The position numbers and the translations under genes were made by a program. A model generated the notes under the pieces. That model worked only from the letters and a program-made list of their open reading frames with translations. It searched no databases and was not told the origin of the DNA. This document shows, piece by piece, positions 16,205-20,022 of a stretch of 30,437 bases of DNA. The first letter of the stretch is position 1. Every line of letters starts with the position of its first letter. This DNA is from Candidatus Binataceae bacterium (GTDB taxonomy: Bacteria > Desulfobacterota > Binatia > Binatales > Binataceae): positions 1 through 30,437 of the forward strand of contig DASPQS010000173.1 in assembly GCA_035624865.1 (NCBI GenBank), written 5' to 3'.

Positions 16205-17038
16205 TCAGCACCCCAAGAACTCCTTGATCGCACCCAGCGCCTCGGGCTCCAGCAGCGACGGCGCATGGCCCACCCCCGGTACCTCCACCACCCGCGTCGC
16301 CGGCATCACCTTCACCATCCGCTCGGTCGTCGCCCGCGCGAGGATATCGCTCTCCGCGCCCCGCACCACCAGTATTGGCGCCGTGATTCGCGCGAACGGC
16401 ACCCACATGTCCATCGGGCGCGCGGCCGACCCCGTGCGCGGTATATTGCGCACCGCCGGATCCATCTTCCACACCAGCCGCCCACCGGGTCCGGGCTTTA
16501 CCGCCCATTTGACGAACTCGGTCAGCGCCGCTTCCGGCGTCTCCCGCAGCGCCGGATAATTCTCGCGGTAATATGCCGCGACTTCCCCGAGATTGGCGAA
16601 ATCCGTCGGCGATGCCGTCATGTATTCGGTGATCCGTTTCGCTCCGCTCTGATCGACCTCGGGTCCCACGTCGTTCAGCACGATCTTCGCGACCCGCTCC
16701 GGATAACCTCCCGCATAGATCATCGAAATCACGCCGCCCATCGAGGTGCCGATCAGCGTCACGCGCTCGATCCCGAGCGCCTCCAGCATCGCCGCCAGAT
16801 CGCTGCTGTACGTCGCCGGGTTGTAATCGCCCGACGGTCCCCATTCGCTGTCGCCGCGCCCGCGCACGTCGATCGCCATCACCCGGTACGCCGCGGAGAG
16901 ATGGGGCGCGAGCGCGTCGAAATTATGGGCGTTGCCGCTCAAACCGTGGAGACATACCAGCGGCGGTTTCGGCCCGCCGCCGAAATCCAGGTAATGCAGC
17001 TTGAGTCCGTTTACCGTTACGAACTGGCTCGAAGGCAC
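16205..17038 (-). CDS. Alpha/beta-fold hydrolase
   Basis: LHG oxyanion motif, DVRGRGDS, nucleophile elbow GTSMG, GAESD and GVGHAP. GTG start at 17038 after GGAGGAGG. Confidence 0.9.
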   Translation of the reverse strand: MPSSQFVTVNGLKLHYLDFGGGPKPPLVCLHGLSGNAHNFDALAPHLSAAYRVMAIDVRGRGDSEWGPSGDYNPATYSSDLAAMLEALGIERVTLIGTSMGGVISMIYAGGYPERVAKIVLNDVGPEVDQSGAKRITEYMTASPTDFANLGEVAAYYRENYPALRETPEAALTEFVKWAVKPGPGGRLVWKMDPAVRNIPRTGSAARPMDMWVPFARITAPILVVRGAESDILARATTERMVKVMPATRVVEVPGVGHAPSLLEPEALGAIKEFLGC

Positions 17039-17081: not shown

Positions 17082-17825
17082 CTATTCGATCGGGGAGGCC
17101 TGGGCCAACGCACGCAGCCGCTCGGGCACGATAATCATCCGCCGTCCGTCGCGAATAATCATCCGCTCGTTTTCGAATTCAATCAGATGCTCGGTCGTTC
17201 GCTGGCGCGAGGCCCCGACCAGTTCGGCCAGATCGAAATGCGTCAGCTTGAGCGTCAGCAACACCCCGCGCGCCTCCTCGGCGCCGAACTTGGTCCCGAG
17301 TTCGAGCAGCGCGTCGGCCAGCCTTTCGCGCACGCTCAGCCCCTGGTAATTCGTGTACCGTTGCAGCATCGCCCACCAGCGCCCCACCGTGACTTCCAGC
17401 ATCCGGCTGAAGCGCTCCAGCGGTACTCCCAGCATTACTTCCACCAAGGTCGAAGGACTGCCCACACCCACGATGCAATCGCTGAAGGCATCGCAGCGGA
17501 AGGGGCGCGTCGCGTTTGGCAACAGCGAAGACACGCCAAAGACCTCGCCCGGTCCGACCAGGCCGACCAATACCCGCTCCTCGCGATTAAGCAGCGAAAG
17601 CTTGGCCACGCCCGAAAGCAGTATGTAGACCTGGTCCGACGCTTCGCCCTCGTAGAAGATCGTCTCGCGCTTTTTTCGTCTTATAGGAGTTAAACTCTGC
17701 GCGAGACCCTGCAACTGGTCTCTATTGAGCCACGATAGATTGCGTAGACGTCCCAAAAAATTTGCGTCTATCGCGGTCTTGGCTTGGCGCTTGTTCACTT
17801 GGTCTTTGCTATCACAGCCGGGCAC
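17082..17825 (-). CDS. CRP/FNR-family transcriptional regulator
   Basis: IFYEGE...VYILLSGVAKL...GPGEVFG beta-roll, RERLADALLEL C-helix, and HTH LTHFDLAELVGASRQRTT. Start uncertain (GTG 17825 or 17798). Confidence 0.9.
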   Translation of the reverse strand: MPGCDSKDQVNKRQAKTAIDANFLGRLRNLSWLNRDQLQGLAQSLTPIRRKKRETIFYEGEASDQVYILLSGVAKLSLLNREERVLVGLVGPGEVFGVSSLLPNATRPFRCDAFSDCIVGVGSPSTLVEVMLGVPLERFSRMLEVTVGRWWAMLQRYTNYQGLSVRERLADALLELGTKFGAEEARGVLLTLKLTHFDLAELVGASRQRTTEHLIEFENERMIIRDGRRMIIVPERLRALAQASPIE

Positions 17826-17827
17826 TG

Positions 17828-17843
17828 TGTCGCCAAGGCGACA
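17828..17843. promoter_or_regulatory. CRP-family-type box 1 (TGTCG-N6-CGACA)
   Basis: TGTCGC-CAAG-GCGACA, perfect half-sites, immediately upstream of the regulator start. Confidence 0.7.
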
Positions 17844-17878
17844 AATGCGCGCGATATCAAGGTAAGACCGGTTTCTTT

Positions 17879-17894
17879 TGTCGCACTCGCGACA
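17879..17894. promoter_or_regulatory. CRP-family-type box 2 (TGTCG-N6-CGACA)
   Basis: TGTCGC-ACTC-GCGACA, with the same half-sites as box 1, 51 bp away. Confidence 0.7.
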
Positions 17895-17913
17895 AGTCGG
17901 CAGAAATTAATTC

Positions 17914-17941
17914 TTGATGGGCGTTTAACACTCAGTACACT
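17914..17941 (+). promoter_or_regulatory. Putative sigma70 promoter of the phaEC operon
   Basis: TTGATG (17914-17919), 16 bp spacer, TACACT (17936-17941). Confidence 0.45.
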
Positions 17942-18026
17942 TGTTAGCTGTAAAGTCATTGGTGATTCCAGACATATCAGACCAACACGCAGGCGCGGCG
18001 AATCTTTGAAGGTGGGGTGAGTGACG

Positions 18027-18554
18027 ATGAGCGTCAAGCAGTCGCATTTCGCGGATGAATTGGTGAGATTCTGTGAAGCGGCCTGGTTCGATCTCCCGTT
18101 GGCCGCAGCCGGACGCATCGCAGGGAGTGTCGACGAAAAGAGTCTGAGCGAGGCCGGATGGAAAGCTTACGAGGCGTGGGTCGGCTTGGCTAACGAGGCT
18201 GCCAATCGCCTCTACGCCAACCCCGCCTTCGGCGAAGCGACGGGCCGCGCCTTCGAAACGGCACTGAAACTCCAGCGCGTCGGCGACGCGCTCGCTTCGG
18301 CATTCTTCGCCAATCTCTGGCCCGCCCTCGGATTGCCGACCCAAAGCCAGATCAATGCTCTGCGCGACGAAGTCATCGCGTTGCGCGAGCAAGTCGCCAA
18401 CGCTCCTTCGGCGCAGCAGTCCCAGCCTCCGCCGCAACCGCCTGCCGAACAACCCTCTGCGTCCGCCGAATGGCCGCGAGCGCTCCGCAACGGCTCATCG
18501 CGCGAAACAGCGGCGTGGGCAAACGGAGAAGGCAAGCAACGTGTCGCCGCTTGA
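18027..18554 (+). CDS. phaE: Short PhaE-like subunit of class III PHA synthase
   Basis: YEAWVGLANEA...ANPAF...LGLPTQSQINALRDEVIALREQV resembles the PhaE C-terminal LPTRxE coiled-coil region. Lies directly upstream of and overlaps phaC. Confidence 0.65.
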   Translation: MSVKQSHFADELVRFCEAAWFDLPLAAAGRIAGSVDEKSLSEAGWKAYEAWVGLANEAANRLYANPAFGEATGRAFETALKLQRVGDALASAFFANLWPALGLPTQSQINALRDEVIALREQVANAPSAQQSQPPPQPPAEQPSASAEWPRALRNGSSRETAAWANGEGKQRVAA

Positions 18555-19650
18555 GCATATCGCCGGCTTTTGGGTCGATGGCGCTTTGCGCACGCTTGAC
18601 GCCTTTGCCAACGGCTTCGGCTCGCCTGACACTGATCCGCCCGCCACCACTCCGTATGAGGTGATCTACCAAGGCGGGAAGGTCAGCCTGCGCCATTACA
18701 AGCCCGAAATTCGGCGTCACAGAACTCCCTTGGTGATCGTTTACGCCCTGATCAAGCGCCCGTTCGTGCTCGACCTCCAGCCAGGCAAAAGCGTCGTCGA
18801 AAACTTGCTGAAACAGGGGTTTGAAATCTACCTGGTCGACTGGATTCCGCCGCAGCGTGCCGACGCCTGGCGAGGATTCGACGCGTACGTCAACCAGGAT
18901 CTGGCCAACGCCGTGCGCGCCGTCCAGGTCGCCGAGGGCGTCGAACAGGTTTCCGTCCTCGGCTATTGCTTCGGCGCGCTCCTAAGCCTGCTGTACACTG
19001 CGCTTCACCCGGCCCCGGTCAAGAATCTCGTTACGCTCACGATCCCCTTCGACATGGGCCGGCGCGAACTGCCGTTCTACAATTTAATCGACTCGATCAG
19101 CGGTGCGGCCGCCGACCTCGTAACCGATATCTACGGCAACTGTCCGGCCTGGATGGTCCACGCCGGCTTCACCGCGATGTCGCCGGTGCATCACGCTTTC
19201 GACAAGTATGTCGGGCTATATCGCAATGCCCGGCGCGACGGTTACGCCGAGATGTTCGACCTATTCGAGCGATGGATTCACAGCGACGTGCCGCTGGCAG
19301 GCAGGCTCTTCAGGGAAACAATCGATATATTCCAAAGTAACATTTGTGCCAAGGATGAATTCGCGATCAACGGCGTCCCGGTCAACCTGGCTAACGTCAA
19401 ATCTCCGCTGCTCAACGTCGTCGCCGAATATGACGACGTCGTGCATCCTTCCTCGAGTCTTCCTCTGCCTCAGTTCATCGGCAGCGAAGACAAGCGAAAT
19501 TTGACCTTCCCGACCGGCCATCTGGGCGCCGTGGTCAGCACCAGCGCCCTGACCAAATTGTGGCCGCAAATCGGCGCCTGGCTGGCCGATCGTGATCGAC
19601 AAGCTTCGGAATCCTCCGGTTTCGTCAGTTCCGTGACAAAAGCCGGATAA
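18541..19650 (+). CDS. phaC: Class III poly(3-hydroxyalkanoate) synthase subunit PhaC
   Basis: TPYEVIY, PLVIVYALIKRPFVLDLQPGKS, YLVDW, lipase-box GYCFG, catalytic Asp (AEYDD) and His (TGHLG); 369 aa. GTG start at 18541 after GGAGAAGG. Confidence 0.88.
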   Translation: MSPLEHIAGFWVDGALRTLDAFANGFGSPDTDPPATTPYEVIYQGGKVSLRHYKPEIRRHRTPLVIVYALIKRPFVLDLQPGKSVVENLLKQGFEIYLVDWIPPQRADAWRGFDAYVNQDLANAVRAVQVAEGVEQVSVLGYCFGALLSLLYTALHPAPVKNLVTLTIPFDMGRRELPFYNLIDSISGAAADLVTDIYGNCPAWMVHAGFTAMSPVHHAFDKYVGLYRNARRDGYAEMFDLFERWIHSDVPLAGRLFRETIDIFQSNICAKDEFAINGVPVNLANVKSPLLNVVAEYDDVVHPSSSLPLPQFIGSEDKRNLTFPTGHLGAVVSTSALTKLWPQIGAWLADRDRQASESSGFVSSVTKAG

Positions 19651-19746
19651 GGGGGCGACGGGTTCGTGGTTAAAATTGATGGGTCGGCAGGTGGCAAGCC
19701 CACCCGCAAAACAAAATCACCCGAAAGGGATCTTGGAGGAGATAGC

Positions 19747-20022
19747 GTGACCGAAAAGGAAAACCGAGAAGGAGTGTTCGAGGCATTCACCAAAATGGGC
19801 GAAACGTTCCTGAGTCTGGAAAGCGCCAAGAAGGCGGCAGCCTGGTACATCGACAACAGCGAGAAATTGGCCAAACAGGCGATCGAATTGCAGGAAAAGG
19901 CGACCACTTGGGCCAAGGAGACCCCGTTTGCCAGCCTGTTCGAGACGCAAACCTCAATCGCGCGCAAGTTTGTCGAGCGTTCTGCCAACGCCGCCCGCGA
20001 TCTCTGGCAAATTCAGCACTGA
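19747..20022 (+). CDS. Small alpha-helical protein, putative phasin-like granule protein
   Basis: 91 aa from GTG 19747 after GGAGGAG. Amphipathic-looking and rich in A/E/K. Last gene before a strong terminator in the phaEC transcript. Confidence 0.55.
   Translation: MTEKENREGVFEAFTKMGETFLSLESAKKAAAWYIDNSEKLAKQAIELQEKATTWAKETPFASLFETQTSIARKFVERSANAARDLWQIQH

Follow-up and report, generated by a model that had tools for sequence, protein, structure and literature searches.

A locally encoded CRP/FNR-family regulator and conserved palindromes suggest dedicated control of a polyhydroxyalkanoate locus in Binataceae

The polyhydroxyalkanoate (PHA) locus of a Candidatus Binataceae bacterium encodes a CRP/FNR-family regulator that likely binds conserved palindromic boxes at the locus and controls its genes. 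The locus lies in a 30,437-nt stretch of DNA, which we call the window, from contig DASPQS010000173.1 of assembly GCA_035624865.1 (genome code G000). On the minus strand the regulator gene is followed by an alpha/beta hydrolase gene, and on the plus strand lie phaE-like, phaC, phasin-like and enoyl-CoA hydratase genes. We propose that a dedicated regulator dimer would bind the consensus shared by the boxes of this family, TTGTC(G/A)C-N4-G(C/T)GACAA, through a CooA-like SRQ recognition helix, and that three promoters at the locus would each have a box of their own. Box 2, in class I geometry on a moderate sigma-70-type promoter, would most likely activate phaE-phaC. Box 1 would serve autoregulation of a regulator-hydrolase operon expressed from an extended -10 promoter, and the weaker box 3 would control the phasin-like gene.

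Results

Rare palindromes are conserved between the regulator and PHA genes

An initial annotation of the window had reported two perfect TGTCGC-N4-GCGACA sites between the regulator and phaE-like genes, and both are found exactly at 17828-17843 (box 1) and 17879-17894 (box 2), with a spacing of 51 bp. Both have the 5-6-5 layout that is typical of CRP/FNR sites. We regard the boxes as candidate binding sites of the regulator dimer, each with two 5-base half-sites 6 bp apart. The annotation had also likened them to the target of CooA, given as TGTC(A/G)-N6-(C/T)GAC(A/G). The likeness is borne out, as the published CooA consensus TGTCGGCNNGCCGACA (Rodionov et al. 2004, PMC545781) fits the boxes and the CooA structure 1FT9 reads SRQ in its recognition helix.

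As the annotation had suggested, we scanned the genome and the orthologous loci for TGTCG-N6-CGACA, and the motif proved to be rare and tied to the locus. The assembly of the source genome spans 2.51 Mb in 314 contigs, has 63% G+C and is 86% complete. The exact motif occurs three times in it, where about 2.9 occurrences are expected from composition. All three sites have the 12-base form TGTCGC-N4-GCGACA, for which about 0.28 are expected, and two of the three stand in one intergenic region. A chance origin of the box pair is excluded.

We followed the conservation of the boxes in 36 loci where the regulator gene occurs together with the phaE-like gene. Every one of these loci has at least one intergenic box, and 34 of the 36 have two, usually 50-51 bp apart. 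A weight matrix derived from the intergenic regions of regulator/phaE-like loci found 72 matches in the 11 kb of intergenic DNA and one in about 120 kb of flanking DNA from the 36 loci, figures that are partly circular and inflated, as the matrix was trained on these same intergenic regions. The strict motif TGTCRC-N4-GYGACA, which we counted in 10 genomes of the same family (f1), occurs zero to four times per genome, and 10 of its 15 occurrences are at the pha locus. The single-contig genome G204 has just two strict matches in 4.6 Mb, both at the pha locus.

Box 3 is degenerate and lies inside the 3' end of phaC, with a perfect right half-site and a matrix score of 13.2 bits in the window. 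Box-3 positions were not part of the matrix training. Among 21 extended loci surveyed for them, a box at the phaC 3' end is present in 15, scoring up to 27 bits, and the copy in genome G016 is perfect.

We also ranked sites across the source genome with a leave-out matrix, built from the orthologous loci of other genomes only, with the source genome excluded. Boxes 1 and 2 rank second and third genome-wide, after one site on contig C249. Besides that site, all other matrix matches in the genome score at most 19.5 bits and lie in coding DNA, and no wider regulon emerged from this search. The C249 site, TTTGTCGC-GCGT-GCGACAAA, scores 26.6 bits within an NTP-transferase gene, whose neighbours are HAD hydrolase, CDP-alcohol phosphatidyltransferase and B12-radical SAM genes. 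Its 16-mer is identical in genome G003 of the same genus (C21:110002), and three other genera have no strict match there. This site may be an internal operator or a chance occurrence.

The regulator combines a CooA-like helix with a CRP-type sensor domain

The regulator matches the Pfam families PF00027 (cNMP_binding; E 1.5e-13, 51 bits against a cut-off of 27.5) and PF13545 (HTH_Crp_2; E 1.1e-11). Its AlphaFold2 model has a mean predicted local distance difference test score (pLDDT) of 85, and the best Foldseek matches are GlxR, the CRP of Mycobacterium tuberculosis and NtcA (E 1e-19 to 1e-16; template modelling score 0.65-0.76). By both domains and overall fold, the regulator is a member of the CRP/FNR superfamily. 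We place its start at GTG 17798, the position favoured by an alignment of orthologue start codons and in keeping with the 234-238 aa of homologues in the databases. A start at 17825, which gives the longest open reading frame, was rejected on the orthologue start alignment and the homologue lengths.

The initial annotation had read the recognition helix as GASRQRTT, with RQ in place of the RE of CRP, and alignment to CooA (1FT9) and M. tuberculosis CRP agrees. The helix aligns residue for residue with iGsSRQtTStaL of the former and GASREtvnkaL of the latter. Across 34 homologues, G195-Q199, T202 and E203 are invariant and R200 and T201 are kept in at least 90%, and the motif GASRQ(R/K)xTE is constant in all orthologues. 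The orthologue at locus G003:C15 of the same genus (L006/L060) is split over two reading frames in the alignment (query 12-60 and 40-247). This split suggests a frameshift, or else a mistake in the assembly, close to the 5' end of the gene; both boxes are kept at that locus all the same.

Given its SRQ helix and the CooA-type box, one could take the protein for a genuine CooA, a haem-containing CO sensor that would link PHA synthesis to carbon monoxide. We consider this very improbable. CooA aligns only with residues 160-243 of the regulator, the DNA-binding domain (E 5.8e-5), whereas the full-length protein aligns far better to cAMP-type CRPs and NtcA (E 7e-16); GlxR is matched as well, and the predicted fold agrees with the sequence in this. 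A true CooA orthologue was rejected on two grounds, a sensor domain that does not align and a locus whose neighbouring genes are pha genes rather than coo genes.

Two other familiar identities were rejected as well. Compared with M. tuberculosis CRP, FGE is replaced by FGV and R-T by R-P, so that the cAMP-contact Glu and Ser/Thr are both replaced and the Arg alone is kept. With these contact residues changed and RQ rather than RE in the helix, the protein is not a cAMP-CRP proper. Nor is it an FNR proper, as the 238-aa regulator has no FNR-type N-terminal cysteine cluster. Its only conserved cysteines are C102 and C108, both in the beta-roll.

The sensor domain thus appears to keep the CRP fold without the cAMP-contact Glu and Ser/Thr, and the regulator would therefore respond to some other signal. 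More tentatively, the SRQ subfamily might be a new sensor class in the CRP fold that reads a PHA-pathway or redox signal (for example acyl-CoA, hydroxyacyl-CoA or the state of Cys102/Cys108) and replaces PhaR as the master switch of Binataceae. If this were true, the regulator would be a switch over polymer synthesis, granule coating and possibly mobilisation, the last because the co-transcribed hydrolase could be a depolymerase.

Promoter geometry suggests a class I position for box 2

The initial annotation had proposed a TTGATG/TACACT promoter for phaE-phaC, with box 2 centred at -61.5. We examined 16 aligned loci on the phaE side, together with a regular-expression survey, and across genera the promoter leaves the footprint cTTGAy-16 nt-TA(A/C)ACT. 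The gap from box 2 to the conserved -35 element is always 19-20 nt. Relative to the predicted transcription start site, this centres box 2 at -61.5 or -62.5 across loci and, in keeping with the annotation, at -61.5 in the window. In genome G018, whose intergenic region reaches 600 bp, a strong box is still found 19 nt from the -35 element. The phaE promoter is placed by phylogenetic footprinting. A simple scan of 17600-19900 for sigma-70 promoters and terminators called nothing, the phaE hexamers matching the consensus at only 8 of 12 positions. These moderate hexamers fit an activator-dependent promoter, a fit that is not evidence by itself. CRP/FNR proteins that bind at -61.5 are mostly activators. 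From this geometry we consider activation at the phaE promoter somewhat probable.

The regulator promoter has a different arrangement. In about 30 loci, an extended -10-like element keeps a fixed distance from box 1 as well as from the GTG/ATG start codon of the regulator gene. The regulator mRNA is probably leaderless, starting at about 17798/17799, because the extended -10 element sits 7 nt upstream of the start codon and no Shine-Dalgarno sequence precedes it. The initial annotation had box 1 abutting the regulator's own start. This did not hold, as the gene most likely starts at GTG 17798 and box 1 is centred at about -37 (-36.5/-37.5) of the predicted regulator promoter. Where the intergenic region is longer, box 1 stays with the regulator gene. 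It overlaps the -35/spacer region and, compared with canonical class II sites, is shifted towards the start site by five base pairs. This half helical turn places it on another face of the DNA, and repression is therefore likelier than activation at the regulator promoter. On this spacing we lean towards negative autoregulation.

At the third promoter, a conserved extended -10-like element of the phasin-like gene follows box 3 by 26-28 nt across loci (28 nt in the window), which would centre box 3 at about -51 relative to the predicted start site.

These positions raise the possibility that the same protein acts through the same sites mainly as a repressor, with PhaR-like logic on all three promoters and release by a PHA-linked signal. 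The overlap of box 1 with the -35/spacer region and the position of box 3, which is not a canonical activation position, suit such a repressor. So does the phasin promoter, with a near-consensus extended -10 element that should need no activator, and so does the failure to find PhaR in G000 and four relatives. The target set, made up of a phasin gene and the regulator's own gene, mirrors the PhaR regulon (PMC9049629). What speaks against general repression is box 2, which lies wholly upstream of the -35 element at a strict 19-20-nt gap, a poor position for occlusion, on a promoter whose hexamers are only moderate (8 of 12 positions match the consensus). The usual behaviour of CRP/FNR proteins at -61.5 likewise counts against it. 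We judge a mainly repressing regulator to be possible but the less probable case, and prefer activation of phaE-phaC from box 2.

Regulator, boxes and PHA genes are linked across the family

The initial annotation had made its proposal depend on conservation of the boxes and of the regulator-pha linkage, and both are conserved. The names carried by close homologues place the lineage in Candidatus Binataceae. We surveyed a sample of 121 genomes from the same family (f1) as the source genome, scoring the regulator as present at an E of 1e-55 or better. The regulator is found in 69 of the 121 genomes, the phaE-like gene in 72 and both in 66. In 63 of 68 relatives the regulator and phaE-like genes stand side by side in divergent orientation, and their synteny and co-occurrence span at least 15 genera of Binataceae. 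In the three genomes with the regulator alone, the gene is at a contig end. The six genomes with phaE alone carry weaker matches to the regulator, at about 30-39% identity. Four of these six loci have lost the regulator and kept the hydrolase and phasin-like genes, and three of the four have lost phaC too. A search for PhaR (PF07879) gave no match in G000 and four relatives, and a control Caulobacter genome was positive.

We then compared homologues that differ in their recognition helix or in their neighbours. In f8, another family of the same class, SRQ homologues of about 50% identity are not next to pha genes. A TGTCAC-N4-GTGACA box nevertheless stands just upstream of the SRQ gene in two of the three f8 genomes searched, and in G031 the 4.2 Mb contain no other strict match. 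G056, the third f8 genome, has its nearest box on the downstream side of the SRQ gene. No pha linkage was found in f8, and the phaC of f8 has no strict box. CRP-family paralogues of the same genomes, at 30-42% identity, carry SRP where the orthologues carry SRQ, and boxes are absent from their loci. Because f8 SRQ genes have a box without pha genes and SRP paralogues have none, the box travels with the SRQ protein and not with pha genes as such. CRP/FNR paralogues are numerous in Binataceae (up to 10 matches in G003; loci L017-L021 and L087-L097). Their helices read GASRPRVTEHL or GSSRPMVSKLL, and some of these paralogues occur as adjacent pairs.

One group of genomes shows loss of the system. 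In G057, G074 and G222, which are sisters of G041, the regulator and phaC are lost and the boxes have decayed, with the hydrolase, phaE-like and phasin-like genes remaining. The PHA loci L077-L081 (G041, G057, G074 and G222, of genus g39) are decaying.

Several observations weigh against the proposal that the regulator controls the locus through these boxes. In G041, which is 98% complete, a 24-bit box persists between phaE and the hydrolase gene, but no SRQ regulator could be found; the genome has three homologues of the regulator, and all are SRP. The top-scoring box of the source genome (C249:1295-1310, L001) sits inside an unrelated coding sequence. At the promoters, the phaE hexamers of the window were missed by a simple consensus scan, and the predicted box positions of -37, -51 and -61.5 are not all canonical CRP activation positions. 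The partial circularity of the enrichment figures counts here as well.

The first two of these observations would suit palindromes that are read by some other factor, or that are mere conserved promoter or structural DNA, with the CRP-family gene linked by synteny only. We consider this improbable. It sits poorly with the 5-6-5 layout of the boxes and with their match to the target of CooA, which is the only characterised SRQ protein in the comparison. It would also leave aside the f8 homologues, which are not linked to pha and yet, in two of the three genomes searched, have a box ahead of their own gene, the SRP paralogues without boxes and the decay of boxes where the regulator and phaC were both lost. 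We continue to prefer the reading in which the SRQ regulator itself binds the boxes.

Genes and other features of the locus

The coordinates of the features are collected in Table 1.

Table 1. Genes, boxes and predicted promoter elements of the PHA locus, in positions of the window.
Feature	Position	Strand	Remarks
Alpha/beta hydrolase gene	16205..17038	-	start GTG 17038 after Shine-Dalgarno sequence AGGAGGAG
CRP/FNR-family regulator gene	17082..17798	-	238 aa; GTG 17798 to stop TAG 17082-17084; longest open reading frame 17082-17825
Recognition helix GASRQRTT	17193..17216	-	within vGASRQrTTehL
Extended -10-like element TGaTAGCAA (regulator)	17806..17814	-	family consensus cTGTGCTA; 7 nt before regulator start
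Box 1, TGTCGC-CAAG-GCGACA	17828..17843		perfect 16-base palindrome
Box 2, TGTCGC-ACTC-GCGACA	17879..17894		perfect; TT/AA flanks lengthen the palindrome
-35 hexamer TTGATG (phaE-phaC promoter)	17914..17919	+	cTTGAy in 16 aligned loci
-10 hexamer TACACT (phaE-phaC promoter)	17936..17941	+	16-nt spacer; conserved as TA(A/C)ACT; predicted start site about 17948
PhaE-like small-subunit candidate	18027..18554	+	175 aa from ATG 18027 (175-177 aa)
PHA synthase PhaC, class III-like	18541..19650	+	start GTG 18541, read from sequence
Box 3, CGTCAG-TTCC-GTGACA	19623..19638		degenerate; right half-site perfect; inside 3' end of phaC
Extended -10-like element TGgTTAAAA (phasin-like gene)	19667..19675	+	conserved as gTGGTTAAAt
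Phasin-like gene	19747..20022	+	91 aa; GTG 19747 after Shine-Dalgarno sequence GGAGGA

The hydrolase gene begins 43 nt downstream of the regulator gene on the same strand, and the two probably form one operon. Its product has an Abhydrolase_1 match in Pfam (E 3.7e-29) and a lipase-box-like GTSMG. Against NCBIfam it has weak matches only, including one of 78 bits to an intracellular short-chain-length PHA depolymerase family with a cut-off of 300. The protein may be a PHA-related esterase or depolymerase. In most loci the hydrolase gene follows the regulator gene, as the phasin-like gene follows phaC, and it remains next to the phaE-like gene even in loci without the regulator.

The initial annotation had described a phaE-phaC operon with boxes before it. 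The synthase part of this description stands, as the phaC product is class III-like but divergent. It has PhaC_N and Abhydrolase_1 domains (Pfam) and scores 284 bits against TIGR01836 (E 1.4e-84), which is below the curated cut-off of 365 yet the best family by far. The name phaE finds no curated family behind it. The protein has no Pfam or NCBIfam family match, and PF09712 (PHA_synth_III_E) does not match it even at E 10. The same model gives a sub-threshold match to the G013 orthologue (18 bits, E 0.003), confined to the C-terminal core. All 78 homologues found are annotated "hypothetical", and look-alikes in the Atlas are short PhaE families at 0.86, which serve as leads only. If the protein is a PhaE, it would be a very divergent short form, and its gene would be translationally coupled to phaC through their 14-nt overlap.

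The phasin-like protein has a weak Phasin_2 match (E 4e-4) that is under the cut-off. A start at GTG 19666 was rejected for this gene, because that GTG falls in the conserved promoter element and orthologue starts favour 19747. The segment 19666-19746 of the long phasin open reading frame is promoter and leader, not coding sequence. Strong Shine-Dalgarno sequences precede the hydrolase, phaE, phaC and phasin genes.

Discussion

The locus offers a complete, testable protein-site-promoter model for a local CRP-type PHA regulator, in a soil lineage without a cultured member. The literature that we searched held nothing that links Binatota to PHA. With a small, apparently locus-confined regulon and a 16-20-bp operator, the predicted system should be easy to test in a heterologous host, and it could become an orthogonal switch once the effector is identified.

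CooA, CprK and HcpR are CRP/FNR regulators with small local regulons, and in kind the regulator described here is another such protein. It shares with CooA of Rhodospirillum rubrum and Desulfovibrio the Arg-Gln at the positions of CRP R180/E181, a TGTCG-N6-CGACA target, and local encoding next to the operon that it is predicted to regulate. In each half of the boxes, the five outer bases fit the CooA consensus. Unlike CooA, however, the regulator has a sensor domain that shows no alignment to that of CooA, its boxes have GC rather than GGC as inner half-site bases, and its predicted targets are PHA genes rather than CO dehydrogenase or hydrogenase.

At class I CRP-dependent promoters, the site is upstream of the -35 element (PMC10187061). 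The phaE promoter resembles these in its predicted dimer site upstream of the -35 element, centred at -61.5 with fixed spacing, and the other box, upstream by another 51 bp, is reminiscent of tandem-site (class III) arrangements. It differs in that the transcription start site here is predicted and the cAMP-contact Glu and Ser/Thr are missing from the protein.

The dedicated PHA regulators covered by a 2021 review are PhaR, PhaQ, PhaD, PhbR and haloarchaeal PhaR (PMC9049629). Like PhaR, PhaQ, PhaD and PhbR, the Binataceae regulator is encoded in a PHA locus and is predicted to control its own gene and a phasin-like gene. In contrast to these proteins, it has an unrelated fold and DNA site, its predicted targets include the synthase operon, and granule binding is not expected of it.

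The CRP/FNR proteins known so far in PHA control are the global oxygen regulators Fnr, Anr and CydR, and the same review describes no locally encoded CRP-family PHA regulator (PMC9049629). These proteins belong to the same superfamily as the Binataceae regulator and set a precedent for CRP/FNR action at pha promoters (PMC9049629). They are, however, global Fe-S oxygen sensors that act through FNR boxes and are encoded elsewhere in the genome, whereas the Binataceae regulator has no Cys cluster, has a distinct box and has a regulon apparently confined to its own locus. The Binataceae regulator is very probably the switch of its own locus, which would be a kind of PHA regulation not described so far.

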